Translations under genes and position numbers: made by a program
Part shown: positions 5,254 through 52,758 of the stretch, piece after piece
Layout: each line of letters begins with the position of its first letter
How positions within the stretch are numbered: the first letter of the stretch is position 1
Source of the DNA: an uncultured Gammaproteobacteria bacterium
GTDB lineage: Bacteria > Patescibacteriota > Microgenomatia > Daviesbacterales > UBA10151
Length of the DNA: 64,000 nt
Assembly (NCBI GenBank): GCA_964392925.1
Contig: CAYMRP010000003.1
Coordinates: 50,786 to 114,785 of the forward strand
Reading direction: 5' to 3'
Notes under the pieces: model-generated
What the model was told of the DNA's origin: nothing
The model's database searches: none
What the model saw: the letters and a program-made list of their open reading frames with translations, nothing else

Positions 5254-6768
5254 ATGGCAGAAGTAAATCCGGAAGCAAAGCTTCGAACCTTCGGTTATAA
5301 TACCCGAATGCTTTCTGTTCGTAATTTATATTTCTCTCATAACACCCATATCATTTTTGAGGATGCAGAGTTTTCTGTGTCTGATGGACAAAAGGTGGGA
5401 CTTATCGGACCAAATGGTGCCGGGAAAAGTACGCTGTTTAAAATTATCAGCGGTGAGGAAAAAGGATATAAAGGAAAAATTGAAACAACCGGCAGCATTG
5501 GGGTGGTGCCTCAGGAAGTTAAGCATGATCCGGTTATGGAGGCTGCAGTATCAATACGGGATTATCTAAATCCGGAGAATGATAAACAAGAATATCAGCT
5601 ATTAAAAATGATGGCAGGGGTCGAACTGGCAGAGCTTGATTTGGAAGCATCACCAAGAGCCTTAAGCGGAGGGCAGAAAACCCGTTTGGCATTAGTGAGG
5701 GCGCTTTTAGCAGAACCGGATATTTTGCTTCTTGATGAACCGACAAACTTTTTGGATATTGCCGGAAAAAAATGGGTGATGGGATTTCTAAGTAATTATC
5801 CGAAGACTTTAATTTTAATTTCGCATGATCTGGAGCTTTTGGACAAGCATATAGATAAGATACTTATGGTTAACGGGCATCTAAAAAAAGTTGAGGAGTT
5901 TAAAGGGAATTATACTCAGGCTTTAGCGCTAAGAGAAGAGCAGCATAATTTGCTGAAGAAACAAGTTCATGTTGAAAAGCAAACTATTAACAGGCTGGAG
6001 AAAAGTATAAATGTGGTTGGTGTTAGACAACGAATTCAGCTGCAAAAAAGAGTAGCCCGAATGAAAGAAGGCCTACCGGACTTACCAGCTGAAGTTAGAG
6101 CCATTAAATTTAAATTACCAGATCCAGCGGTGGTGGGGGCATTACCGATAAAAGCTGCCAATATTTCGAAATCGTATGGGGATAAAAAAGTTTTAGAAAA
6201 TATTAATCTGGTTATTGAGCGAGGCGAGAAAGTGGCTTTGATCGGGCAAAACGGAGTTGGCAAAAGCACATTAATAAAAATCCTCCTAGGGTTTTTGGAG
6301 GCAGATAGCGGAGAAGTTATACGCGATCCAGAACTCAAAGTGGGCTATTATTCTCAAGAATTTGAGAATCTGGATTTTAAGAAAACATTACTTGAAACGG
6401 CGCGGGGAGAGTTAAATTTAGCTGATAATATTGTCAGACCAATATTGGCCAGATTTCTATTTCCAGGAAGTAAAATTAATCAGGAAGTGGGAACATTATC
6501 TGGGGGTGAAAAGACTAGGTTATCAATTGCACTGCTTTTGCTGCAAAATTATAATTTACTTGTTTTAGACGAGCCGACAACATATTTGGATGTGTTATCA
6601 CAAAGAATTATTCTGCAGGTTTTAAAAGATTATCAGGGAGCAATATTAATTGTTTCGCACACAGAAGAATTTATTAAAGAGTTGGAGCCAAGAAGAGCTT
6701 TAGTTTTACCTGAGAATCATTTTGATTATTGGTCGGAGGATTTTTTGGAGCGGGTGTCTGAAGTGTAA
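5254..6768 (+). CDS. ABC-F family ATPase (two tandem ABC domains, no TMD)
   Basis: Walker A GPNGAGKST and GQNGVGKST. Signatures LSGGQKTRL and LSGGEKTRL. Walker B LLLDEPTN and LVLDEPTT. No TMD. Confidence 0.8.
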   Translation: MAEVNPEAKLRTFGYNTRMLSVRNLYFSHNTHIIFEDAEFSVSDGQKVGLIGPNGAGKSTLFKIISGEEKGYKGKIETTGSIGVVPQEVKHDPVMEAAVSIRDYLNPENDKQEYQLLKMMAGVELAELDLEASPRALSGGQKTRLALVRALLAEPDILLLDEPTNFLDIAGKKWVMGFLSNYPKTLILISHDLELLDKHIDKILMVNGHLKKVEEFKGNYTQALALREEQHNLLKKQVHVEKQTINRLEKSINVVGVRQRIQLQKRVARMKEGLPDLPAEVRAIKFKLPDPAVVGALPIKAANISKSYGDKKVLENINLVIERGEKVALIGQNGVGKSTLIKILLGFLEADSGEVIRDPELKVGYYSQEFENLDFKKTLLETARGELNLADNIVRPILARFLFPGSKINQEVGTLSGGEKTRLSIALLLLQNYNLLVLDEPTTYLDVLSQRIILQVLKDYQGAILIVSHTEEFIKELEPRRALVLPENHFDYWSEDFLERVSEV

Positions 6769-8169: not shown

Positions 8170-9606
8170 ATGACAAAGACAATCAATACAAATAAACAGA
8201 TTATTCTATGGCTTTTGGCGTTAACCATGTTTTTGGTGGTTTTAGACAGCGCAATTATTAATGTAGCTTTGCCTAAAATTAAAGAAGCTTTAGGGTTTGA
8301 TGATGCTTCGCTTCAATGGGTATTAACTTCATATATTTTAACTTTTGGGGGATTTTTAATGCTGGGCGGGAGAACTGCAGATTTGTATGGAAGACGAAAA
8401 GTTTTAGTTTTTGGGATTGCTGGTTTTACTCTGTCGTCACTTTTAATAGGCCTCTCTGGGTCGGCGGAGATGCTGATTGGTTTAAGAGCATTTCAAGGAC
8501 TCGCGGCAGCATTTATGGCTCCAACTGCTTTATCTATTTTATTGACTACATTTGAAGAAGGAGACAGTAGAAACAAAGCACTAAGTATTTGGAGTTTAGT
8601 AGCATCAGGCGGAGCTGCAGCTGGGGTTTTTTTGGGAGGTTTATTAACTCAGTATCTGGGATGGCAGTGGTGTTTTTTCGTCAATGTGCCGGTAGGGATC
8701 TTAGCAATAATTGGAATCCAAAAATATGTTCCAGCGCATGCGTCAGAGGAGAAAGATAAACAATTAGATTTGCCGGGAGCTGTTTTAATAACAGGAGGAC
8801 TAATGGCGCTGGTTTATGCTTTAACTTTGGCTTCTGAATCGGGGTGGACTAATACTGTGACTTTGGGGTCCTTAACAGTTAGTTTTTTGATGATCGCGGC
8901 TTTTATTTTTAATGAAAGTAAAGTTAGTCATCCGCTGGTGCCATTATCGATTTTTAAAATCAGAAATGTAACGGGTGGTAATTTAATGATGATGCCGATT
9001 GTGGCAGGAGCGTTAGGAATGTTTTTCTTTTGTTCTTTGTATGTGCAGAATATTCTAAAATTTTCTCCAGTTCAAAGCGGATTAAGCTTTTTACCGGTCC
9101 CGATAATTATAGGAAACATTGCTTTCCAAGCGCCAAAACTTTTGAGGAGGTTCGGGTTTAAGATTTTAGTTATGACTGGTGTTTCACTGGCATCAATTGG
9201 GATTTTTTTGATGAGTCTTTTAAACGTTGATTCTTCTTATTTATTCCATATGCTGCCGGCATTTATTGTGCTGGCTTGCGGATTTGGATTATCTTTTGTA
9301 GCGATTACTGTGGCTGCAACTTCTGGGGTACCTAAGCATGAAGCTGGATTGGCTGCGGGGCTTATAAATACTTCTCAGCAAATTGGAGGAGCATTAGGAC
9401 TGGCTATTCTAGCGGTAGTTGCGCATTCTGCGACTGTAGCTGCTTTATCTTCAGGGGTTGTAGGGGATATGGCAATTATGGCCGGTTATAAAAGAGCATT
9501 TTTGACGGCTTCCGGGTTGATGATACTGGCTTTATTTATTGCGGTGTTTGTAATAAAAACTCCTAGAACTAGGGGTGAAAGCGGTGCTCCACTCGTAAAT
9601 CATTAG
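8170..9606 (+). CDS. MFS transporter, DHA2 (14-TMS drug:H+ antiporter, EmrB/QacA-like)
   Basis: 478 aa with 14 hydrophobic segments. Motif A-like GRTADLYGRRKVL and motif C-like region. Confidence 0.75.
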   Translation: MTKTINTNKQIILWLLALTMFLVVLDSAIINVALPKIKEALGFDDASLQWVLTSYILTFGGFLMLGGRTADLYGRRKVLVFGIAGFTLSSLLIGLSGSAEMLIGLRAFQGLAAAFMAPTALSILLTTFEEGDSRNKALSIWSLVASGGAAAGVFLGGLLTQYLGWQWCFFVNVPVGILAIIGIQKYVPAHASEEKDKQLDLPGAVLITGGLMALVYALTLASESGWTNTVTLGSLTVSFLMIAAFIFNESKVSHPLVPLSIFKIRNVTGGNLMMMPIVAGALGMFFFCSLYVQNILKFSPVQSGLSFLPVPIIIGNIAFQAPKLLRRFGFKILVMTGVSLASIGIFLMSLLNVDSSYLFHMLPAFIVLACGFGLSFVAITVAATSGVPKHEAGLAAGLINTSQQIGGALGLAILAVVAHSATVAALSSGVVGDMAIMAGYKRAFLTASGLMILALFIAVFVIKTPRTRGESGAPLVNH

Positions 9607-12132: not shown

Positions 12133-12690
12133 ATGCAGAGCGTATTTTTTCAGACTGCAGAGGAATTTCGGAAATGGTTAGAAGAGAATTATGATAAGAA
12201 GTCCGAAATTTGGGTAAAGTTTAATAAAAAGGCTTCCGGAAAAGGCGGAATGGATCGCAAAGAAGCGCTTGATGAAGTGCTATGTTTTGGTTGGATTGAC
12301 GGAATTGTTAAGAGCTTAGACGAAGAGTCTTTTATTCAAAGATATACTCCTCGGACCAAGAAAAGTATGTGGTCGAAGATTAATACAGCTAATATTGAGA
12401 GACTAATTAAAGAAGGGAAAATGAAAGAATCGGGATTGAGGGAGGTTGAGCTTGCACAGGCGGATGGAAGATGGGAGGCGGCTTATGATTCACCAACAAA
12501 TTCAAAAGTTCCCGAGGACTTTATGGAACAATTAAAGAAGAATAAAAAAGCAGAAGTATTTTTTGGAAGTTTAAATAAAACAAGTTTATTCATGATTGCT
12601 TATAGACTGCAAACTGCTAAAACTAGAGAGACCCGAGAGAAACGGACTAAGGATATTATTGATAAACTTGAGGTCGGCATAAAACTTTAA
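12133..12690 (+). CDS. YdeI/OmpD-associated family protein (bacteriocin-protection-like)
   Basis: 185 aa. FQTAEEFRKWLEENYDKKSEIWVKF…GWIDGI…RYTPRTKKSMWSKIN pattern is characteristic of the YdeI family. Confidence 0.5.
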   Translation: MQSVFFQTAEEFRKWLEENYDKKSEIWVKFNKKASGKGGMDRKEALDEVLCFGWIDGIVKSLDEESFIQRYTPRTKKSMWSKINTANIERLIKEGKMKESGLREVELAQADGRWEAAYDSPTNSKVPEDFMEQLKKNKKAEVFFGSLNKTSLFMIAYRLQTAKTRETREKRTKDIIDKLEVGIKL

Positions 12691-12747
12691 GACTACAAAC
12701 TATCCTATAGAGTTGATTTTTTATGATATTTGTGATATTATTCTTCT

Positions 12748-13038
12748 ATGAGTGGAGAAGTACAAAATGGTGGGCATGCAGTATATAGAATAGGACGTGT
12801 TGAAACAGCGATTGGTGCTGCAAGATTTGTTTGTGCTTTAACAGGTGCTGTGGCAAGAGGAACTGCTGGACGGACTTTAGAGGGAGTTTTGGCTGGGACT
12901 GAAGTAATAGTCCCGAGGGTGGGTCATGTAGTAGAGGATGTTGCATTGGAGTTGAGAAGAGCTGGAAAGAACGGACAGATTGTATTTAAAGCTATTGCCG
13001 CAGGAGTTCAAAGAGGATTAAGAGGGGCTGCTCACTAA
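12748..13038 (+). CDS. Hypothetical Gly/Ala/Val/Arg-rich small protein (coding status uncertain; region open on both strands)
   Basis: 96-aa ORF in a purine-rich, locally GC-elevated segment with no upstream RBS. The opposite strand is also open, so this could instead be a structured RNA. Confidence 0.25.
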   Translation: MSGEVQNGGHAVYRIGRVETAIGAARFVCALTGAVARGTAGRTLEGVLAGTEVIVPRVGHVVEDVALELRRAGKNGQIVFKAIAAGVQRGLRGAAH

Positions 13039-13046
13039 AAAGGTAG

Positions 13047-13074
13047 TTGACATTGATACTAGAAATAATACAAT
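13047..13074 (+). promoter_or_regulatory. Strong sigma-70-like promoter TTGACA-16 bp-TACAAT
   Basis: Perfect -35 TTGACA (13047-13052), 16-bp spacer, -10 TACAAT (13069-13074). Confidence 0.55.
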
Positions 13075-13084
13075 TAAAGAAGTT

Positions 13085-13162
13085 ATGAATATGAAATCTA
13101 ATGTTTGTTTTAAATGGCATCACAACCGCACCCTTATTGGGGAGGCGGAGCTGATGCTGTAA
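13085..13162 (+). CDS. Putative 25-aa leader peptide MNMKSNVCFKWHHNRTLIGEAELML
   Basis: ATG 10 nt downstream of the predicted TSS. Followed directly by a terminator hairpin that abuts the start of the next gene. This is an attenuator-like layout. Confidence 0.3.
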   Translation: MNMKSNVCFKWHHNRTLIGEAELML

Positions 13163-13199
13163 GTCCAGCAGAAAAAGGACTTGCAAAGCAAAAAGCTTT

Positions 13200-13231
13200 A
13201 ACCGCCAATCTAAAAAAGAGGCGGTTTTTTT
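13200..13231 (+). terminator. Intrinsic terminator/attenuator hairpin (AACCGCC…GGCGGTT + T7) abutting the start codon of the 13232 gene
   Basis: 7-bp GC-rich stem, 13-nt loop, then TTTTTTT ending 1 nt before GTG at 13232. Confidence 0.5.
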
Positions 13232-14029
13232 GTGGAGAAAACTATGATTTCAGAAAGAGATGCAAATTTAGGAATACAGGGTAGAGTTCCTCTGAGGGAG
13301 GGTTCAATTCTTGTTACCAAAACTCCAGGGAAAACTCCAGAAATGGTGTTTGTTGAGAGAGTGTTAGAAGGAAGAGGAGCAGAGATGATTAACTTACGTG
13401 ATGGCAGACCTTTTAGTACAAGTTTAAGTTCGTTAGAAAGAGGTCGGGTTGGTAGATCAGAAGTCGTTGGAGAATTTAGTAGAGGTAAAGGGGTTGAAAA
13501 CACTTCAGATTCTAAACTAGATAGTGATATGGTTGTCGTGAAACCTAAAGGATCAGATGAAGAAATCTTTACGATTGTTACAGGGATAGAATCAGGTCAT
13601 GCAATCCTTTCAACGCCTGAGAGACCTAATAGCCAAATGTTTAGAATTCCGACACAGGATTTAAAAGAAGGAAGAAGCGAAGCTTTCGATTTTGAACCCG
13701 TGCCGAGTAAGTTTTCATTATTAAAAGATGCCCATACGCTTAATGCACCAAATGTTTCACCTCCGATAGAGGAGAGGGCGATTGCTGTATGTTCTTATGG
13801 AGTGCCCTCAAGAGATGTGGATACAGGAGCTATTATTGGAGACTGTCTGCCTGAGAGGTCAATTGAGGACATAGCAAAAGATCCGAATGCGGTATTTTTA
13901 GAGGGAATGAAAATGGCAGCAGTCTGGATGGCTGAGGAGGGGAATGGACGAGGACTAGTGGCTTTAGCTGCTTTAAGTGTAGGAACCTTAGCAGGATTAC
14001 CTATTTTAAATAGAGGAATTGATAGTTAA
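13232..14029 (+). CDS. Hypothetical protein (265 aa, no recognisable domain; G/E/R/S-rich)
   Basis: Long ORF with a GTG start, or ATG 12 nt downstream. Composition differs from neighbouring housekeeping genes. No motif recognised. Confidence 0.45.
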   Translation: MEKTMISERDANLGIQGRVPLREGSILVTKTPGKTPEMVFVERVLEGRGAEMINLRDGRPFSTSLSSLERGRVGRSEVVGEFSRGKGVENTSDSKLDSDMVVVKPKGSDEEIFTIVTGIESGHAILSTPERPNSQMFRIPTQDLKEGRSEAFDFEPVPSKFSLLKDAHTLNAPNVSPPIEERAIAVCSYGVPSRDVDTGAIIGDCLPERSIEDIAKDPNAVFLEGMKMAAVWMAEEGNGRGLVALAALSVGTLAGLPILNRGIDS

Positions 14030-14039
14030 GAGTATTTTA

Positions 14040-14258
14040 ACTATAATTATGTACTGACTGTGAAGGAATCGGTTGGGATTCTGGAGTCAATTAGGCTATC
14101 TTTTAAGAATGTCTAATACAGAGACGAAACTGAAAAGACTGTAGCGGATGTTGGAAATCAAAGTCCGTCAAGAATAAGTATTAATATCAAGGTGGCACCG
14201 CCAATTTGTTGGCCCTTGTTTGTTCATCAGATTTTGGTGAATGAGCAAGGGCTTTTTG
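14040..14258 (+). promoter_or_regulatory. Candidate T-box riboswitch leader (Trp-specific) with terminator, upstream of trpE
   Basis: AAGGTGGCACCGCC (14189-14202) matches the T-box core GGUGGNACCGC, with the UGGC bulge expected for tRNA-Trp discriminator G. Terminator GCCCTTG…CAAGGGC + TTTTTG (14212-14258) sits directly before trpE ATG 14271. A possible UGG specifier lies at about 14082. Confidence 0.45.
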
Positions 14259-14270
14259 TTTGGAGAAAAT

Positions 14271-15650
14271 ATGAAATTGCCGAAGATTATTTTGAGTAAA
14301 AAACCGACTTACCTAAAGATTGCTGAGGGGTTGGATTTGTTTGAGGTTTTTTCGAAAATAGAGAATAAGTCTGAGGATTGTTTTATTCTGGAATCACTGG
14401 GTGAACAAAATAGTTTATCCAGATATTCGATTGTGGGGTTTGACCCGAAGCATATAATTTCGGCGCGAGGTAATAGTTTATTCTTTGATGATGAAGAGTT
14501 TAGCTTTGATGACCCTACTTCGCCAGGGCTTCGCGGGGCGAGAAATCCGTATTTTGCTTTGAGGGAGATTGTGCCGCAAGACTTATTCTCCAAGTTTTAT
14601 GCCGGAGGTTTGGTCGGCTTTTTGAGTTATGAAGCAGCAAATTATTTTGAGCCATCTTTAAAGCTAAAGGAACATAAAGATTTTGAGGCATTTAAATTTG
14701 GAGTTTATTTGGACGGACTGGTTTTGGATAAAATAACCGGTGAGCTATTTTATTTTTATTACGACGAGAATCGTATTGAGACGGTACGAGCAATAATTAA
14801 GGCAAAAGTAGAAAAAGGGAATGTAGAAGTGAAGTTTTTAGGAGATACGTTGGACGGAAGAGGACATCAGCGGAATGTTGAATATGTACTTGATCAAATA
14901 AAACGAGGAAATACTTTTCAATGCGAAGTGGGTTTTAAATCAGAATTTAAAATTGAGGGCAACAGTCTTTTGATATACGAGGATTTGAGAAAAGTTAATC
15001 CATCTCCATTTATGTACTATTTAAAATTTAGTGAGCAAAAAATTGTTGGTGCCAGTCCAGAACTTTTGTTTAGATTAAAGAGTGGGGATATGGAGACATT
15101 TCCACTAGCTGGAACGATTAAGCGGGGCAAAACAGAGGAAGAAGATATCAAACTGGCAAGGGAATTATTAAATGATCCAAAAGAAATTGCTGAACATAAT
15201 ATGTTGGTTGATTTGCATAGAAATGATTTAGGAAGAGTAGCGAAATTCGGAACGGTTAAGGTGAGAAGTTTAATGGATATAAAAAAGTTTTCGCACGTTC
15301 AACATATCTCATCTGAAATTTCAGGGGTAATTAAAGAAGATTGTGATATGTTTTGCAGTTTGTCGGCATCATTTCCGGCAGGAACTCTTACAGGGGCTCC
15401 GAAAATAGAATCGATGAAGATAATTAATAAACTAGAGAATAGTCCGCGCGGTCCGTATGGAGGTGCTGTAGGGCATTTTGGATTTGATGGGAATTGTACA
15501 TTTGCAATTTCGATTAGATCGCTGTTTATTTCTGGGGAATATGGGTATGCGCAAACTTCAGGGGGAGTTGTAGCGGATTCGGAGGCGGATAAAGAGTATG
15601 AGGAAATTGTTAGAAAGCTTGCAGCAATGAAGAAAGTTTTAGAAGTATGA
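14271..15650 (+). CDS. trpE: Anthranilate synthase component I
   Basis: Chorismate-binding domain (…LAGTIKRGKTEEEDIKLARELLNDPKEIAEHNMLVDL…GAVGHFGFDGN…). Start at MKLPKIIL, downstream of the terminator. Confidence 0.9.
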   Translation: MKLPKIILSKKPTYLKIAEGLDLFEVFSKIENKSEDCFILESLGEQNSLSRYSIVGFDPKHIISARGNSLFFDDEEFSFDDPTSPGLRGARNPYFALREIVPQDLFSKFYAGGLVGFLSYEAANYFEPSLKLKEHKDFEAFKFGVYLDGLVLDKITGELFYFYYDENRIETVRAIIKAKVEKGNVEVKFLGDTLDGRGHQRNVEYVLDQIKRGNTFQCEVGFKSEFKIEGNSLLIYEDLRKVNPSPFMYYLKFSEQKIVGASPELLFRLKSGDMETFPLAGTIKRGKTEEEDIKLARELLNDPKEIAEHNMLVDLHRNDLGRVAKFGTVKVRSLMDIKKFSHVQHISSEISGVIKEDCDMFCSLSASFPAGTLTGAPKIESMKIINKLENSPRGPYGGAVGHFGFDGNCTFAISIRSLFISGEYGYAQTSGGVVADSEADKEYEEIVRKLAAMKKVLEV

Positions 15651-16240
15651 AAGTACTAATAGTTGATAATTACGATTCATTTACATATAACCTTTATCAG
15701 TTGGTAGGGGAGATTTTGGAGAAAGAAAATAAAAATTTTAGACTTGATGTTTTTCGTAATAATGAAATTACAACTTCGGAAATCGAAAAAGCTGGTTATG
15801 AAAAAATTATTATTTCCCCGGGTCCAGGGGATCCGTCTGATAAAAATTATTTTGGGATTTGTGGTGATGTTTTAATATCTTTAGGAAAAACAATTCCGGT
15901 TTTAGGAATTTGTTTAGGAATGCAGGGACTCGGATATTATTACGGAGCGAAAGTATCTGCGGCCTCTAAAGTAATGCATGGTAAAACATCGATAATAAAT
16001 CATTCTGGCAAAGGGTTGTTTCAAAACTTGCCTCAAGATTTGGAGGTAATGAGATACCACTCACTGATTGTAGAAAGAAGAGATTTGCCTAATGATTTGG
16101 AAATTCTAGCGACAAGTGAAGATGGGGAAATAATGGGCTTGCAGCACAAAAAATATCCAGTATCCGGTGTGCAGTTTCATCCTGAATCTTTTGCAACAGA
16201 AGGGGGGAAGCAGATTATTAAAAACTTCCTGTTTAACTAA
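15647..16240 (+). CDS. trpG: Anthranilate synthase component II (glutamine amidotransferase)
   Basis: Class I GATase with catalytic GICLGMQ Cys and HPES His. ATGA overlap with trpE. Confidence 0.9.
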   Translation: MKVLIVDNYDSFTYNLYQLVGEILEKENKNFRLDVFRNNEITTSEIEKAGYEKIIISPGPGDPSDKNYFGICGDVLISLGKTIPVLGICLGMQGLGYYYGAKVSAASKVMHGKTSIINHSGKGLFQNLPQDLEVMRYHSLIVERRDLPNDLEILATSEDGEIMGLQHKKYPVSGVQFHPESFATEGGKQIIKNFLFN

Positions 16241-16241
16241 G

Positions 16242-17255
16242 ATGACTATTAAAGATTTCGCTAAATTACTAAAGAGTAAAAAAGATTTGAGTGAGAATCA
16301 GGCTAAAGATTTGCTGGGTTTATTGATGGACAATGATACGAATGACGAGCAAATTGCGGAGATTCTAATTTTACTTTCTGAGAAAGGTGAGTCTATTTCT
16401 GAGATAACAGGTTTTATAAAAGGAATGAGAGAGTTAATGGTGGAGATTGAAAGTTCACCAGAGACGATTGATATTGTGGGAACTGGAGGAGATGGTTCGA
16501 ATTCATTCAATATTTCGACTGTTTCAGCAATTGTGGCTGCGAGCTGCGGAGCTGTGGTTGCTAAGCATGGAAATAGAGCGGCATCTTCTCTTTGCGGGAG
16601 TGCGGATGTTTTAGAAGAGTTGGGGGTGAATATAAATTTAAATTCTAAGACGGCGGAGGAGGTTTTGAGAAAATACGGAATGGTATTTTTGTTTGCAAGG
16701 GTTTTTCATCCGGCGATGAAAAAAGTAGGCCCTGTTCGAAAGGAATTAAAGAGACGAACAATTTTTAATTACTTAGGTCCTTTTTTGAATCCCGCAAAAG
16801 TTAGGAGAATGCTTTTAGGGGCGGCTAATATGATACTGGCGCGAAAACTATTAGAGATTGCTAAGCAGTTGGAATATGAGCATGTGCTTATTGTGACAAG
16901 TGATGATGGATTGGACGAAATAAGTATTGCCAGTAAGACAACAGTTTTGGAATTAAAGAATGGGGTTAGTAAAGAATTTATTATTGATCCGCAGAAGTTA
17001 GGTTTTGGGGTATTTAAGAAAAGCGATTTGATTGGCGGGGATCCTGCTAGAAACGGACAAATTGTTAGGGATATTTTGGACGGAAAAGAGCAAGGGGCGA
17101 AAAGGGAATCAGTAGTTCTAAATAGCGCCTACGCTTTACTTGTTTCGGGTCGAGTATCAAATGTTTCAGATGGAATTAAAATGTCGAGGGAAGCAATTGA
17201 TTCAAGAAAATCATTTGAACTATTAAAAAAATTAAGGAGGGTGACTAATGAATGA
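16242..17255 (+). CDS. trpD: Anthranilate phosphoribosyltransferase
   Basis: GTGGDGSNSFNIST glycine-rich loop and KHGNRAASS motif. Start taken at MTIKDF, immediately after the trpG stop. Confidence 0.9.
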   Translation: MTIKDFAKLLKSKKDLSENQAKDLLGLLMDNDTNDEQIAEILILLSEKGESISEITGFIKGMRELMVEIESSPETIDIVGTGGDGSNSFNISTVSAIVAASCGAVVAKHGNRAASSLCGSADVLEELGVNINLNSKTAEEVLRKYGMVFLFARVFHPAMKKVGPVRKELKRRTIFNYLGPFLNPAKVRRMLLGAANMILARKLLEIAKQLEYEHVLIVTSDDGLDEISIASKTTVLELKNGVSKEFIIDPQKLGFGVFKKSDLIGGDPARNGQIVRDILDGKEQGAKRESVVLNSAYALLVSGRVSNVSDGIKMSREAIDSRKSFELLKKLRRVTNE

Positions 17256-18048
17256 AATGTTGAAGAAAATAGTTGAAGCGAATAGAGAAGATTTGAACTT
17301 ACGAAAAAAAGAGATTTCGCAAAAAGAGTTGGAAGAGAAATTATTTGGAATTACTAAATGTTTAGATTTTAGAAAAGTTTTTGAAACTGAGTTTGGAATT
17401 ATCGCAGAGATAAAACTAGCTTCACCATCAACTGGCGATTTAATAATGCCCGGGCAAATTTTACAAATTGTTGAAGATTACAAAAAAGGCGGGGCTAAGG
17501 CTATATCGGTCGTTACAGAGAAGCATTTTTTTAAAGGCGATATAAAACTTATAAAAGAAGTAAAACAGAAAACGGGGCTTCTTATTTTGCAAAAGGATTT
17601 TGTTGTTGATAGATATCAAATTCTTGAAGCCCGGATTGCGGGAGCAGATGCATTACTATTAATTGCAAAGATTTTAGATCCAGAGCAAATTAAGGAATTT
17701 GTGGAATTATGTTTTGAGTTGGGGATTGAACCGGTGGTAGAGATATATGATGAAGAAGATTTGATTAAAGCTCAGAATACTAAGACCCGGATTATCGCTG
17801 TTAATGCAAGGGACCTGAATACTTTTGAAATTAATATTGACAGAGCTTGTGAACTGATAAATAAGATTCCAGAAGATTTTTTGAGGTTGGGGTTTTCAGG
17901 GGTTAATACGAAAGAGGAGATTTTAAAGTATAAAAAGGCAGGAGCTAGAGGAGTTCTGATAGGGAGTAGTTTGATTAAGGCTTTGGATAGAGTAAAATTT
18001 TTGGAGGAATTAAGTGATTTTGCATCCACTGGAGATAAGAATGATTAA
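17248..18048 (+). CDS. trpC: Indole-3-glycerol phosphate synthase
   Basis: IAEIKLASPSTGDL…AISVVTEKHFFKGD…LILQKDFVVD…IAVNARDL is the typical IGPS TIM-barrel. 8-nt overlap with trpD. Confidence 0.9.
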   Translation: MNEMLKKIVEANREDLNLRKKEISQKELEEKLFGITKCLDFRKVFETEFGIIAEIKLASPSTGDLIMPGQILQIVEDYKKGGAKAISVVTEKHFFKGDIKLIKEVKQKTGLLILQKDFVVDRYQILEARIAGADALLLIAKILDPEQIKEFVELCFELGIEPVVEIYDEEDLIKAQNTKTRIIAVNARDLNTFEINIDRACELINKIPEDFLRLGFSGVNTKEEILKYKKAGARGVLIGSSLIKALDRVKFLEELSDFASTGDKND

Positions 18049-18649
18049 TGTCAAAATTTGCGGTATAAGATCGGATATGGCGGCCAAGACCGCGGTTTAT
18101 TCAGGAGCAAAATTTTTAGGATTTAATTTTGCGTCCGGATCAAAGCGGAGAATAACGCCAGTGTTTGCCAAGCAGATAATTGATCAAATTAAAAATCAAG
18201 TTAATGTGGTTGGGGTATTTCAAAACCAGAAAGCAGAAGAAGTTAATAAAATTGCGGAGATGCTTGATTTAGATTATGTCCAACTTCATGGTGATGAGGA
18301 TGAGGAATATGTCAAAGAGATAGAAAGGCCTGTTATAAAAGTTTTGCAACTTGATCCGGATTTTAATATAACTACGGTTTTAAAAGAAATGAATAAATAT
18401 CAAGCCGAATATTTTTTATTGGATCGCAAAAAGCAAGGAAAAGGTAAAATGCTGGATACGAAAAGCCTAAGTGTTGTTTGTAAGGAGAAAAAAATATTTG
18501 TGGCCGGAGGATTAACTTGTGAGAATGTGGCTAATGTTATTAGCTCTGTAAATCCATTTGGGGTTGATGTGGCATCGGGAATTGAGACGAATCGAATAGA
18601 AGACACAGAGAAAATAAAATTATTTATGGAAAGGGCAAAAGGAGCATAG
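18041..18649 (+). CDS. trpF: Phosphoribosylanthranilate isomerase
   Basis: MINVKICGI N-terminus and …VQLHGDE…FVAGGL… Overlaps trpC by 8 nt. Confidence 0.85.
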   Translation: MINVKICGIRSDMAAKTAVYSGAKFLGFNFASGSKRRITPVFAKQIIDQIKNQVNVVGVFQNQKAEEVNKIAEMLDLDYVQLHGDEDEEYVKEIERPVIKVLQLDPDFNITTVLKEMNKYQAEYFLLDRKKQGKGKMLDTKSLSVVCKEKKIFVAGGLTCENVANVISSVNPFGVDVASGIETNRIEDTEKIKLFMERAKGA

Positions 18650-18685
18650 GAGAGTAGGTATTTTCTCGCTGCACTCGAAAAATAT

Positions 18686-19912
18686 ATGATGAAAAGGGGA
18701 AAGTTTGGACAATATGGTGGGCGGTATGTACCGGAGATGTTGATTCCGGCGCTTGAAGAATTGGAAACGGCTTATGATGAGGCGAAAAAAGATCCGGAAT
18801 TTAAGAATGAATTTCTGGACTTATTAAAGAACTTTTGTGGACGGCCAACACCGCTCACATATGCTGCAAATTTAACTAAGCTGTTAGGGGGAGCAAAAAT
18901 TTATTTAAAGAATGAAGGACTCAATCATACAGGAGCTCATAAAATAACTCATTGTGTTGGTCAGGGACTACTAGCTAAAAGAATGGGTAAGACAAGGATA
19001 ATTGCGGAAACTGGGGCTGGGCAGCATGGTTTGGCATCGGCGACTGTGGCGGCCAAACTGGGAATGAAATGTACTGTTTTTATGGGTGAAGTGGATTATA
19101 ACAGGCAGAGGCCAAATGCTTTTTGGATGGAACAACTAGGAGCTGAAGTAGTACCTGTTAAATTTGGATCAAGAACTTTGAAAGATGCTGTTAATGCAGC
19201 GATTAAAGACTGGATTGAAAATGTTGATGATTCTTATTATCTTTTGGGATCGGTTGTTGGGCCGCATCCTTATCCGACAATGACTCGGGATTTTCAAGCT
19301 ATTGTTTCAAAAGAAGTTAAAGAGCAAATACAAAAATTTGAGGATAGGTTACCAGATGTGGTGATAGCTTGTGTTGGCGGAGGCAGTAACGCAATGGGGA
19401 TTTTTTCAGGATTTCTAAGTGATAAAAATATAAGATTGATTGGAGTTGAAGCAGGTGGAAAAGGGAAAGGAATAGGCAATAACGCTGTCAGATTTGAGGG
19501 AGGAACTGTGGGGATTGTTGAAGGATATAAATCCTATTTTCTTCAGGACTCAGATGGACAGTTAAATAGAACTCATTCAATTTCGGCAGGGCTTGATTAC
19601 GCAGGTATAGGGCCGGAGTTAGCTGATTTGCATGATAAAAAACGGGTTGAGTTTGTTTCTGTGACAGATAAAGAAGTGATAGAAGCTTTTCAAACATTGG
19701 CACATTCGGAAGGGATCATTCCGGCTTTAGAATCAGCACATGCTGTGGCTCAGGCTATAAAAATTGCTCCAACTTTAAAAAAATCACAAGTGATTGTGGT
19801 GAACTTATCAGGTCGAGGAGATAAGGATTTATTTATAGTGGCTAAAGCAATGAAGGATAAGAAATTTAAGAAGTTTTTAGAGGAGTATTTGGGAGGTTAC
19901 GATCAGGATTAG
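18686..19912 (+). CDS. trpB: Tryptophan synthase beta chain
   Basis: PLP Lys motif LNHTGAHKITH, and GGGSNAMG. Confidence 0.95.
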   Translation: MMKRGKFGQYGGRYVPEMLIPALEELETAYDEAKKDPEFKNEFLDLLKNFCGRPTPLTYAANLTKLLGGAKIYLKNEGLNHTGAHKITHCVGQGLLAKRMGKTRIIAETGAGQHGLASATVAAKLGMKCTVFMGEVDYNRQRPNAFWMEQLGAEVVPVKFGSRTLKDAVNAAIKDWIENVDDSYYLLGSVVGPHPYPTMTRDFQAIVSKEVKEQIQKFEDRLPDVVIACVGGGSNAMGIFSGFLSDKNIRLIGVEAGGKGKGIGNNAVRFEGGTVGIVEGYKSYFLQDSDGQLNRTHSISAGLDYAGIGPELADLHDKKRVEFVSVTDKEVIEAFQTLAHSEGIIPALESAHAVAQAIKIAPTLKKSQVIVVNLSGRGDKDLFIVAKAMKDKKFKKFLEEYLGGYDQD

Positions 19913-19945
19913 GCGGTATTTTCTCGGCTTGCTCGAAAAGTATTT

Positions 19946-20680
19946 ATGAAATTGATGACACATGTAGTGGTGGGATACCCATCACTTAAAGAGACAGAGG
20001 ATTTAATTTTGCTAATGGATGAGGTTGGAGTAGATTATATAGAACTACAAATTCCATTCTCAGATCCGTTGGCCGATGGGCCGACAATTATGAAGGCCTG
20101 TGAAGAGTCTCTAAGAAATGGGACCAAAGTTGCTGATGCGTTTTTACTGGCATCAAAATTGAAGACTAAAACTAAAACCCCACTTTTATTTATGGCTTAT
20201 TTTAATACCGTCTTTCACTACGGCATTCAGAAGTTTTGTAAAGATGCAAAACGCGCCGGAATTGCCGGACTAATTGTGCCGGATTTTCCCCTTGAAGAGG
20301 AAGAAACAGAGCACTTTAATCAAATTCTAAAGCAGAATGGGCTATTAAATATAAAAGTATTGTCTCCTGCTTCAACAGAGGAGCGGATAAAAATGAATGC
20401 GGAAGTGGGGACCGGATTTGTATATTGCACAGCAAGGCAAGGAATCACCGGAGCCGAGAAAGGATTTGATCCGAAAGTGATTAAGTATCTAAAAACTGTT
20501 AAAAAACATTTTAAAATTCCGGTAGCATTAGGGTTTGGGATTTCAACTAAAGGACATATATCACAGATGGAAGGATTGGCTGATGTGGCAGTTGTTGGGA
20601 GCGCGATATTGGATATCATTAATTCGAATAGAAAAGAATATTTAAATAAAGTAAGAGACTTTTTGAAGGATCTGAGATAA
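19946..20680 (+). CDS. trpA: Tryptophan synthase alpha chain
   Basis: YIELQIPFSDPLADGPTI catalytic region and GFGIS. Confidence 0.9.
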   Translation: MKLMTHVVVGYPSLKETEDLILLMDEVGVDYIELQIPFSDPLADGPTIMKACEESLRNGTKVADAFLLASKLKTKTKTPLLFMAYFNTVFHYGIQKFCKDAKRAGIAGLIVPDFPLEEEETEHFNQILKQNGLLNIKVLSPASTEERIKMNAEVGTGFVYCTARQGITGAEKGFDPKVIKYLKTVKKHFKIPVALGFGISTKGHISQMEGLADVAVVGSAILDIINSNRKEYLNKVRDFLKDLR

Positions 20681-50994: not shown

Positions 50995-52758
50995 ATGTTA
51001 GAAATCCTTTACAATCCAGTCATGACATTTAAAAAACTGGCGGAGTATTTTGAGAAATTAGAAGAGACTTCTTCGCGATTATCCTTAATTGATATATTAT
51101 CGGAACTTTTTTCTGAGGTTTCTCCTGATGAGGTGCCGATGGTTTCTTATTTAATACAAGGAAGAGTAGCCCCTTTTTATGAGCCTGTTGAAATTGGAAT
51201 GGCGGAAAAGAATGTGGCGGCATCGATTGCTAGAGCATATGGTGTTGATAGAGAAGAGGTTTTAACACTATATGGAAAAGTTGGAGATTTAGGAAAGGCT
51301 GCTTTGGAACTGAGCCAGAAGAAAAATCACAAAAGCCAGAGCCTAACAATTAAAGAAGTCTTTGAGACGCTAAAGGAAATTGCAGGATTTTCAGGAGACG
51401 GGACTGTTGAAAAGAAAATCTCAACTTTGGTGGGATTGCTGGAAAAAGCTAGCGGAATAGAAGCCAAGCACTTAGTTAGGATTCCAATCGGAACATCACG
51501 CCTGGGGATTGGTGATCCGACTGTTTTAGATGCCTTTGCTAAGGCTAAATTGGGCGATCGATCAAAGAGGAAGCTCTTAGAGGGGGCATACAACAAAGTG
51601 TCTGATTTAGGACTTATTGGAAAGACTTTGTGGGAGGGCGGGCTTCCAGCAGTTCAAAAGCTGGATGTAGAGTTTGGAAGACCTATTAGAAGTCAGCTTT
51701 GCGAAAGATTGCCTGACCCGAAATCAATTTTGGAAAAATATGGAGGAGATGCTCATGTGCAATATAAATACGACGGTTTTAGGATTCAGATACATAAAAA
51801 GGGAAAACAAGTAAGATTATTTTCGCGTAATTTAGAGGAAACAACGCCAATGTTTCCAGATATTATCGAAGGTGTTTTAAAACAAATTAAAGCTGATTCG
51901 ATAATATTGGATTCAGAAGGATTGGCGTATAACCCGGAGTCAGAGGAATTTTTGCCGTTTCAGGAAACTACGAAAAGAAGAAGAAGACACGGAATTGAGG
52001 ATGCGGCAAAAACTTTACCACTCAAAGCATTTGTTTTTGACATCATGTATATCAACGGAAAATCTTTAGTTGACACCCCGTTATCTGAGAGATTGCAAAT
52101 TATGGCAAAAGCGATCGATGGAGATGAGGTTTTAATTGAACAGCCAGGAATATTTATGAATGATGCTGCTAAGATGGATGCAATGCTGCAGGATGCACTG
52201 ACTAAAGGGTTAGAGGGGTTAATTGTTAAAAGGCCTGATTCTTTGTATGAGGCTGGGGCGCGTAATTTTAACTGGATTAAATTAAAGCGTCATTCCTCGG
52301 GCGAACTTAAAGACACGATTGATTGTGTAATTTTGGGATATATTTTTGGTAGAGGGAAACGGGCTGATTTTGGGGCAGGGGCATTATTAGTTGGGGTTTA
52401 TGATAAGGAAAAAGATGAATTTGTGACTGTTTCTAAAATAGGGACTGGGTTAACAGATGAAGAGTGGAGGGAGATTCATAGACGGGCAGATAAGATTAAG
52501 GTTGATCATAAACCGGCAAGAGTGAATGCAGTCATGGAACCTTCAGTTTGGATTAAGCCGGAAATTGTGATTGAAGTTTTAGCAGATGAGATTACAAAAT
52601 CTCCAACTCATACGGCAGGTAAAACGGATACGGAGCCTGGATATGCTTTACGATTTCCAAGACTGGTTAAGTTTAGAGATGCGGATAAAAGAGCTGAGGA
52701 TAGTACGACTGTTTCAGAGCTGGTAAAAATGTATAGCGCTCAGTATTCGAAAAAGTAG
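50995..52758 (+). CDS. ATP-dependent DNA ligase (Lig1/archaeal-type: DNA-binding + adenylation + OB domains)
   Basis: Motif I KYDGFR (Lys adenylation), motif III, motif IV EGLIVK, motif V, OB domain. N-terminal DBD (…FEKLEETSSRLSLIDILSELF). An alternative ATG at 51022 sits 7 nt after a TACAAT box, suggesting a leaderless start. Confidence 0.85.
   Translation: MLEILYNPVMTFKKLAEYFEKLEETSSRLSLIDILSELFSEVSPDEVPMVSYLIQGRVAPFYEPVEIGMAEKNVAASIARAYGVDREEVLTLYGKVGDLGKAALELSQKKNHKSQSLTIKEVFETLKEIAGFSGDGTVEKKISTLVGLLEKASGIEAKHLVRIPIGTSRLGIGDPTVLDAFAKAKLGDRSKRKLLEGAYNKVSDLGLIGKTLWEGGLPAVQKLDVEFGRPIRSQLCERLPDPKSILEKYGGDAHVQYKYDGFRIQIHKKGKQVRLFSRNLEETTPMFPDIIEGVLKQIKADSIILDSEGLAYNPESEEFLPFQETTKRRRRHGIEDAAKTLPLKAFVFDIMYINGKSLVDTPLSERLQIMAKAIDGDEVLIEQPGIFMNDAAKMDAMLQDALTKGLEGLIVKRPDSLYEAGARNFNWIKLKRHSSGELKDTIDCVILGYIFGRGKRADFGAGALLVGVYDKEKDEFVTVSKIGTGLTDEEWREIHRRADKIKVDHKPARVNAVMEPSVWIKPEIVIEVLADEITKSPTHTAGKTDTEPGYALRFPRLVKFRDADKRAEDSTTVSELVKMYSAQYSKK

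Follow-up and report, generated by a model that had tools for sequence, protein, structure and literature searches.

A candidate leader-peptide transcription attenuator conserved upstream of a T-box-controlled trp operon and followed by a strain-variable slot of orphan genes

The subject of this study is a 64,000-nucleotide stretch of contig CAYMRP010000003.1 (termed the window), and within it an island at positions 12691–14030 that lies upstream of a T-box-controlled trp operon. The informative unit of the island consists of a promoter, a small open reading frame (ORF) and a terminator at 13047–13231, followed by an orphan gene (termed the cargo gene), and this unit is probably a ribosome-dependent (leader-peptide) transcription attenuator belonging to a sequence family not described before. 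Mechanisms of this kind are familiar; what is new is the sequence family, and what is unusual is the arrangement of the locus in the genome. The conserved, explanatory part of the island is this leader, rather than the proteins encoded beside it. The initial annotation of the island, made from the letters alone, had pictured four elements in a row, namely a GC-elevated stretch, a near-consensus promoter, a 25-codon ORF and a terminator in front of a 265-amino-acid (aa) protein, and all four were found at the positions given for them (Table 1).

Table 1. Features of the island and its right-hand border (positions in the window)
Feature	Position	Strand	Details
Promoter-like site of the 96-aa ORF	12713..12741	+	TTGATT-17-TATTAT with TG; 9/12 consensus match, weak
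96-aa basic orphan ORF	12748..13038	+	Isoelectric point (pI) 10.7; hypervariable centre
Near-consensus sigma-70 promoter of the leader transcript	13047..13074	+	TTGACA-16-TACAAT; 11/12 consensus positions
Leader ORF	13085..13162	+	25 codons, or 23 from ATG 13091; M(NM)KSNVCFKWHHNRTLIGEAELML
Hairpin 1:2, proposed anti-antiterminator	13116..13158	+	Outer stem GGCAUCA/UGAUGCU
Segment 1 (inside hairpin 1:2)	13126-13134	+	CCGC.CCCU
Segment 2 (inside hairpin 1:2)	13139-13148	+	GGGG.GGCGG
Hairpin 3	13159..13184	+	Begins at the leader stop codon UAA 13160-13162
Proposed antiterminator 2:3	13144..13211	+	Encloses hairpin 3
AAGCUU box	13193-13198	+	
Intrinsic terminator 3:4	13200..13231	+	AACCGCC (13200-13206), 13-nucleotide loop, GGCGGUU (13220-13226), T7 (13225-13231)
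Cargo gene	13244..14029	+	261 aa; Shine–Dalgarno sequence GGAG 13234-13237
T-box/trp operon promoter	14019..14047	+	TTGATA-17-TATAAT; runs over the cargo stop codon; bounds the variable slot on the right
Atypical Trp T-box leader and terminator (14211-14253), then trpE	14051..14253	+	Context, outside the unit

The leader unit was recovered as 12 distinct copies, which is a lower bound (at least 12), in related metagenomic loci (designated here by L numbers); four came from DNA pattern scans and the others from contigs coding for homologues of the cargo protein. It is the most conserved DNA of its neighbourhood, being 77–90% identical between lineages, where in the same comparisons the trpE, trpG and DUF2061 genes are 72–78% identical and the cargo DNA is 56–70% identical. 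When the window was compared with its closest relatives, L004 and L033, the background identity was 88–89% and the transcribed leader displayed 0 and 1 differences, respectively, in 151 nucleotides (nt), with ~17 being expected. The observation is taken to be real and far beyond chance because the unit is conserved in this way. A covariance model built from the 12 copies (R1) found exactly one copy per locus, at 109–137 bits, and no second copy of the leader was detected with this model in the 64-kb window.

The promoter of the unit is kept as well. A TTGACA −35 hexamer, a spacer of 16–18 nt and a TAnAAT-type −10 hexamer stand at the equivalent position in 11 of the 12 related loci, although the promoter scan taken as a whole was at chance level (6 sites found, 5.7 expected). 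The terminator was overlooked by a simple terminator scan, because its loop exceeds 8 nt. Searches against Rfam, as had been proposed for this region, returned nothing for the leader: no family matched the leader or the GC-rich stretch before it, whether over the whole window at the gathering score or over 12600–14350 at E ≤ 10; leader families including Trp_leader (RF00513) and T-box (RF00230) gave no match over 12600–13243 even at E ≤ 10; and the leader in eight related loci gave no match at E ≤ 0.01, with the T-box family included. The only Rfam match around the island was the T-box at 14051–14220. Among matches of the DNA pattern to genome contigs, 18 of 19 were chance matches in GC-rich genomes, and the single match to a viral contig, considered as a sign of viral origin for the leader, was likewise a chance match in GC-rich DNA. 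A motif common to the leader terminator and the window T-box, ACCGCCAAU, was considered as a sign of relatedness or of pairing in trans, and this idea was dropped because the motif is not conserved in L033.

The small ORF is open in one common frame in all 12 copies, at 22–33 codons, and the remaining two frames of the leader are without conservation. The encoded peptide carries an invariant F-x-W-H, followed by [H/C/Q]-[N/T/A/-]-R-[T/S/I]-[L/I]. The Trp codon, which is at 13115–13117 in the window (Trp and His codons together, 13115–13123), is invariant across the copies, and the His codon of F-x-W-H shows a synonymous CAU/CAC change. Codon-sized losses of 3 nt were observed, of one codon in L039 and of the Asn codon in L043 and L044, and the N-terminal length of the ORF differs among the copies, always in frame. 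The stop codon is located 8–11 nt past segment 2 (GGCGG) in 11 of the 12 copies, so that a terminating ribosome would cover segment 2. The 25-codon ORF of the initial annotation is therefore present, as said above, and judging by the relatives its second ATG, at 13091, may be the real start. The distance from the −10 hexamer to the leader ATG is 10–21 nt across the copies (10–16 nt in the window), and the ORF is presumably translated from a very short 5′ untranslated region; the copy in L044 has a Shine–Dalgarno sequence, GAAGGAG. In public assemblies (L002–L004), a 56-aa ORF in another frame, running across the leader and the terminator (13114–13284), is annotated as a gene; it lacks conservation in other lineages and is almost certainly spurious, whereas the real leader ORF, of 23 codons, is never called in these assemblies.

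Folding of the leader RNA (13080–13240) was far better than that of shuffled sequences (z = −4.84, with 0 of 200 shuffles as good), and the terminator is the 3′ hairpin of the minimum free energy (MFE) fold. The RNA has a four-segment layout made up of hairpin 1:2, a proposed alternative pairing 2:3 and the terminator 3:4, in which segments 1 and 3 both have CCGC and segments 2 and 4 both have GGCGG. The terminator stem (7 bp, GC-rich) is invariant in the 12 copies and its U-tract has 6–7 T; the inner stems of hairpin 1:2, CCGC/GCGG and CCCU/GGGG, are also invariant, and in L045 both arms of this hairpin are longer. In the window, the 2:3 pairing joins GGCGG-AGCU (13144–13152) to AGCU (13194–13197) and CCGCC (13202–13206), together with GGG/UCU, and across the copies it takes the form of GGCGG:CCGCC, AGCU:AGCU or an equivalent, and GG(G)A:UCU, placed around hairpin 3. 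Hairpin 3 itself displays compensatory changes (AAGUCC/GGACUU, AAGUCA/UGACUU, AAGUCU/AGACUU, AAGUUU/AAACUU and AAAUC/GAUUU), including a pair that is C:G, A:U or U:A, and further compensatory variants are present in L041 and L047. When segment 1 was excluded, as if covered by a ribosome, and the 3′ arm of the terminator was left out, as if still to be transcribed, the 2:3 pairing was the MFE fold in all 12 copies. Closure of the 2:3 helix brings a gain of ~ −10 kcal/mol, which is similar to that of the terminator at −10 to −14.

These data also bear on a leader that is not translated at all, that is, a riboswitch or a protein- or tRNA-binding leader in which hairpin 1:2 would be the sensor and the ORF a by-product of RNA conservation. 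A ligand that stabilizes hairpin 1:2 would drive a three-helix switch equally well. In L045, where both arms of the hairpin are lengthened, the conserved GGGAGGCGGAG that follows is read in another frame (peptide ...ILILEGGGGLALSPK), so that conservation of this part, segment 2 included, is at the level of RNA rather than of peptide. Moreover, UUUA-NN-UGGCAY is conserved at the nucleotide level, with the variable codon always beginning with A, and a Shine–Dalgarno sequence is lacking in most copies. However, the stems of 1:2 and 3:4 are constant in all copies and it is their loops and internal loops that vary, which argues against a ligand pocket; variability falls on the unpaired positions, and in L007 and L008 the A/AG internal loop is closed by pairing, so that no conserved pocket is visible. 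In addition, the frame of the ORF survives three independent codon-sized indels together with the changes in N-terminal length (22–33 codons), the stop codon keeps its distance from segment 2, the Shine–Dalgarno sequence of L044 is canonical, and no Rfam family, T-box included, matched the leader. A non-translated sensor is thus regarded as very unlikely.

If the unit is an attenuator, its operation would be as follows. A strong promoter would give rise to a short-leadered transcript, of which the first ~23 codons would be translated. A ribosome that reaches the stop codon would cover segment 2, or after its release hairpin 1:2 would reform; segments 3 and 4 would then form the terminator, and an RNA of ~150 nt would be released. 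From the geometry of the footprint, a ribosome with UGG, CAU or CAC in the A site would cover segment 1 and not segment 2. A ribosome that stalls when the invariant Trp or His codons occupy its A site would therefore mask segment 1, leaving segment 2 (GGCGG-AGCU) to pair with segment 3 (AGCU...CCGCC) once the latter had been made. The terminator would in this way be blocked, and RNA polymerase would continue into the promoterless cargo gene, which begins 12 nt beyond the U-tract.

The mechanical start of the downstream ORF is GTG 13232, giving the 265 aa of the initial annotation, in which the T-tract of the terminator ran into the start codon. All homologues, though, begin MIS(D/E)RD, which places the real start at ATG 13244 and the length at 261 aa; the terminator was correctly placed and the start was not. 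The next start codon is 12–25 nt beyond the U-tract in every locus, which leaves no room for a promoter belonging to the cargo gene, so that its transcription would occur only by read-through. Lying without room for a promoter behind a conserved terminator and a conserved leader ORF, the gene is predicted to be conditionally expressed, and the earlier guess of a conditionally expressed module was right in spirit.

The cargo family is very small, with 5 clusters in 5.8 billion proteins and 10 representatives in 1.84 billion in an exhaustive HMMER search. The initial annotation had found no recognizable motif in the protein and had named homology to a housekeeping family as a result that would speak against its reading; none was found, as the 261-aa cargo, the alternative cargos and the products of the upstream ORFs, that of 96 aa included, had no match in Pfam, NCBIfam, PADLOC, PHROGs or PDB sequences. 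An AlphaFold2 model of the cargo protein reached a pLDDT of 64.7 with 13 sequences (39 with 5 sequences), and this model shows two small predicted beta-barrels (~residues 20–78 and 95–155) and a helical C terminus. Foldseek comparison of the model with the PDB gave nothing at E ≤ 0.001, the top matches being weak tandem-Tudor-like proteins at TM ~0.2. A single match to the cargo in BFVD (E 2e-4, TM 0.2) was not meaningful.

In most loci the place behind the leader is occupied by members of this family of 261–331 aa. In L033, which is 88–89% identical to the window, exactly the equivalent place is taken by two unrelated ORFs of 101 and 108 aa; in L024 there are ORFs of 210 and 121 aa, and in L029 there is an ORF of at least 339 aa. 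Contigs from related samples extend this picture. The leaders of L036 and L006 are 99.4% identical, and their T-box and trpE sequences are 99.2% identical over 1173 nt, yet between their cargo genes (L036:856–1762 and L006:168–982) no similarity was detectable by blastn, and the encoded proteins are 41% identical. L029 (12593–13628) matches L036 at 96.9% identity as far as mid-leader and from there runs on into a third, unrelated cargo, the breakpoint being inside the leader. These three contigs point to cassette exchange or to an old balanced polymorphism. Judged from the sequences compared, the slot is strain-variable, with the leader as its left border and the T-box promoter, overlapping the cargo stop codon, as its right border, and the best explanation is that unrelated or highly diverged orphan genes would be exchanged in it. 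The earlier expectation that the content of the island would vary between related genomes is in keeping with this.

The right border was followed in the same loci. The T-box/trp promoter is kept at the 3′ end of the cargo in 10 of 12 loci, and a site equivalent to that at 14019–14047 is present in L004, L006, L007, L008, L033, L036, L039, L041 and L045; it overlaps or abuts the stop codon of whichever cargo gene is there. There is no terminator between the cargo and this promoter, so that transcripts reading through would run on into the T-box leader as well. At L046:2260–2475, the most distant cargo homologue of known context, P0012 (331 aa), follows genes for succinyl-CoA ligase and citrate synthase. 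Its leader is different, with TTGACA-17-TACAAT, an ORF of 12 codons that lacks Trp and a weak hairpin (CCGC...GCGG-U5), and may be an analogous but unrelated attenuator.

The variable slot is also where the idea of an acquired module, put forward in the initial annotation as toxin-like or as a ribosomally synthesized and post-translationally modified peptide (RiPP)-like unit, has to be weighed; here, the small ORF would code for a precursor peptide or a toxin, with the 265-aa protein as its partner. The combination of a small ORF with a leaky terminator and a larger gene does resemble the layout of lantibiotic and type III toxin–antitoxin operons, and all the proteins are orphans in a variable locus. 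Against this, one and the same peptide precedes four unrelated cargos, so that what ought to be the 'enzyme' is swapped while the peptide is conserved, and the C-terminal half of that peptide is not conserved as peptide in L045, where the 3′ half of the conserved sequence is kept as RNA. No modification-enzyme, transporter, immunity or toxin domain was found with Pfam, NCBIfam, PADLOC and PHROGs, no modification, transport or immunity family was present among the neighbours, no toxin family matched in any library, and no tandem RNA repeats of the ToxIN kind were visible in the 150-nt leader, nor did PADLOC or Pfam reveal an endoribonuclease of the ToxN/AbiQ type. Finally, the unit is not mobile: it is conserved within the lineage at one address, in a single copy per locus and with no viral copy. 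An acquired RiPP or toxin unit is accordingly held to be extremely improbable.

The address of the unit is next to trp. The metagenome comparison suggested earlier as a check of synteny showed that, wherever sequence beyond the cargo is available, a T-box motif and/or trpE comes next, the alternative-cargo loci L024 and L033 included, and that the unit is always upstream of a separately promoted T-box and trpEGDCFBA operon. The earlier labels 'orphan' and 'acquired' are thus not supported for the regulatory unit itself, which is lineage-conserved at a fixed place. Because the unit always precedes a T-box-controlled trp operon, shortage of charged tRNA-Trp would be the most likely signal; if the unit is an attenuator, the odds that this is what it senses are put at roughly even, the chief alternative being a stall that depends on the nascent peptide or on a drug. 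Trp is scarce in the main cargo family, with 8 Trp in 3624 residues (0.22%) compared with 0.84% in 48 proteins of the window, and the binomial P of 1e-6 for this depletion is overstated since the sequences are related. The seven trp enzymes of the window (14241–20680) are similarly Trp-poor, with 2 Trp in 2164 residues.

The T-box of the window is atypical in its own right, scoring 27.9 bits against a gathering score of 93, because its Stem I is 10 nt long, compared with 76 nt in the model. It contains a small hairpin, GGAAUC-GGUUGG-GAUUCU, with UGG in the loop, and recalls the 'ultrashort Stem I' T-boxes. The T-box match in L041 is equally weak, at 32.6 bits.

One form of the alternative signal is translation stress in general or an antibiotic that targets the ribosome, either being sensed through the nascent F-x-W-H as in erm, cat or ABC-F leaders and not through the charging of tRNA-Trp, with the cargo being a stress, defence or resistance factor. 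The single Trp codon without a tandem run is in line with such a signal, as are the invariance of F-x-W-H in the face of a synonymous CAU/CAC change and the strain variability of the cargo, conflict genes often being variable. ABC-F-like and efflux genes 4–8 kb upstream provide weak context for it. The trp-adjacent address is, however, fixed in every locus, the main cargo family is Trp-poor and no cargo resembles a known resistance or defence protein, and the stress or antibiotic signal is considered quite unlikely.

Several observations weigh against the attenuator, and they concern its translation, its switch and its link to tryptophan. Most copies lack a Shine–Dalgarno sequence, so that their translation would have to begin by short-leader or leaderless initiation. 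In classical trp leaders, two or three Trp codons stand in tandem; across the 12 copies there is only one Trp codon, followed by His and then by His, Cys or Gln, with no tandem run, and the conservation of UGGCAU could come from the outer stem of hairpin 1:2 rather than from the codons. The stems of 1:2, 2:3 and 3:4 are invariant, which leaves almost no covariation in them, and the copies stand for only ~8 lineages; a chimera test for co-evolution of the 2:3 flanks in the 12 copies was not significant (p = 0.16). Equilibrium folding with simulated masking by a ribosome kept the terminator, at a probability of ~0.8–1.0, at nearly all positions in most variants, and any switch would thus have to be kinetic. 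The E. coli trp switch is likewise kinetic. Finally, the alternative cargos (L033, L024 and L029), counted by eye, are not Trp-poor, and the trp operon has a T-box and promoter of its own, so that the leader unit need not serve trp.

It could also be that the terminated ~150-nt transcript is itself the product, functioning in trans as a dual-function small RNA and/or through the 23-aa protein, with read-through into the cargo being incidental or secondary. This is compatible with attenuation and could add to it. The conservation goes beyond what an attenuator on its own should require, given that linkers and loops show 0–1 differences in 151 nt set against a background of 88–89%, and the leader outlasts the replacement of both neighbouring genes and combines a strong promoter with a strong terminator. 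Trans functions of a trp attenuator RNA and its leader peptide have been published (PMC6614838, PMC7298713). On the other hand, no trans target turned up, though no target search was made; read-through must be of consequence to the cargo, which has no other promoter; between lineages there is variation in loops and linkers; and the completely different C-terminal half of the L045 peptide speaks against a functional peptide beyond F-x-W-H. A product acting in trans in place of attenuation is therefore judged unlikely.

The stretch upstream of the unit, which the initial annotation had described as GC-elevated and open on both strands at 12746–13038, was found to have a GC content of 0.48 at 12775–12999, compared with 0.31–0.40 in the flanks, with a GC skew of +0.44 to +0.50. 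The elevated GC and an ORF of 96 aa on the plus strand were borne out; the minus strand is open only in places (ORFs of 66, 44 and 64 aa). The stretch was considered as a structured RNA and rejected, with fold z-scores of −0.56 and −0.41 and no conservation across lineages. The 96-aa ORF is an orphan, having only 2 clusters in 5.8 billion proteins, and its positional counterparts are ~75–105 aa long and all basic (pI 9.5–10.8), with no similarity detectable across lineages among these upstream ORFs of ~95 aa. Compared with L004 and L033, the ends of the ORF are conserved, the centre is strongly diverged and there is an in-frame 12-nt indel; substitutions by codon position are 19–23, 20 and 30–32, a modest excess at the third. 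The conserved ends, the in-frame indel and the third-position excess together suggest that the 96-aa ORF is a real but fast-evolving gene.

The upstream ORF ends 8–35 nt before the −35 hexamer of the leader in 9 of 10 loci examined, and in L036 its stop codon overlaps that hexamer. Between L007 and L008 the flanks are 85% identical and the leader is 98–100% identical, and the upstream ORFs are unrelated at the DNA level in either orientation; an invertible segment was rejected on the comparison of L007 with the reverse complement of L008, which gave no match. The 96-aa ORF is not claimed as part of the leader mechanism. The −10 hexamer of its promoter-like site ends 6 nt before ATG 12748, and its mRNA is probably leaderless. 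Taken with the leader ORF, this indicates that the lineage may use leaderless or short-leader mRNAs widely.

A more far-reaching proposal ties these parts together. In it, a cassette slot exchanged by recombination would have the leader and the T-box promoter as its fixed left and right arms, respectively, and would hold several very old or unrelated orphan alleles, beside a gene for a hypervariable small basic protein, all of them induced by one sensor of Trp starvation or translation stalling whose released RNA or peptide also acts in trans. The locus would then be an undescribed kind of starvation-gated polymorphic conflict locus, serving in phage defence or competition. The variation cited for this proposal is that of alleles 41% identical between flanks 99% identical, and of three different cargos within a single set of related samples. 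The proposal as a whole is put forward as speculative and is thought improbable.

The wider surroundings of the island contain an ABC-F gene of the ribosomal-protection-like kind at 5254–6768 (NF000355; 382 bits, cutoff 380) and a gene for a DHA2-family efflux transporter of the major facilitator superfamily at 8170–9606, both a few kb upstream. Both genes were also found in L033, and the ABC-F gene additionally in L029. At 50995–52758, the window, which is from a bacterial low-GC chromosome, encodes a dnl1-type ATP-dependent DNA ligase of 587 aa.

Should the attenuator mechanism hold, the unit would represent a new attenuator family from uncultured low-GC bacteria that is easily recognized with the covariance model R1. 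A single trp locus would pair a Trp-codon leader peptide with an atypical short-Stem-I Trp T-box, and the attenuator would be one whose working depends on short-leader or leaderless translation. The controlled target would be a strain-variable orphan slot, not a biosynthetic enzyme. The inducing condition and the promoter would also give a concrete handle on genes that are without any annotation.

Among known systems, TnaC is a peptide of ~24 aa with the hallmarks W12-D16-P24, which works through Rho and stalls at the stop codon. The leader peptide described here is alike in being ~24 aa long, in having its Trp ~13–14 residues from the C terminus, and in a K/T-W-x-N that resembles the K-W-F-N of TnaC. 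No Asp or Pro was found at the corresponding positions in the 12 copies, in which the distance from Trp to the C terminus is 13 or 14, and, unlike in TnaC, a stall at the stop codon would here favour termination. In Bacillus subtilis, the rtpLP leader peptide has three Trp codons and acts on translation rather than termination. The rtpA (anti-TRAP) operon to which it belongs carries a T-box (PMC10327191), and in both systems a T-box and a Trp-codon leader peptide stand in one trp-related locus and control an accessory, non-enzymatic protein; the order is reversed here, and the cargo is unrelated to anti-TRAP.

In Sinorhizobium meliloti, the released RNA rnTrpL and the leader peptide peTrpL of trpL are reported to be functional themselves (PMC6614838, PMC7298713, PMC7968998). 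That system is also a Trp attenuator upstream of trpE, and a trans function of the same sort could explain the excess conservation seen here; its peptide differs, being of 14 aa with three Trp, and it belongs to a different phylum. Deinococcus deserti has leaderless leader peptides for attenuation, including one for trpEGD, and they resemble the present one in being made from a transcript that begins at the start codon or a few nt away from it and in having a predicted role in attenuation; unlike here, those peptides are rich in the cognate residue and there is no variable cargo (PMC4007540).

The comparison with E. coli trpL (Rfam RF00513) covers the whole of the proposed switch. There is no similarity in sequence or by covariance model, one Trp codon is present here in place of two, the leader ORF is almost leaderless, and an extra conserved hairpin stands between segments 2 and 3. 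The gene that is directly gated here is a variable orphan, with trpE having its own promoter and T-box. Nevertheless, the two share a short leader ORF with its Trp codon or codons at the start of segment 1, the potential for 1:2, 2:3 and 3:4 pairings, a terminating ribosome that would cover segment 2, an intrinsic terminator directly before the regulated gene, and a position upstream of the trp genes.

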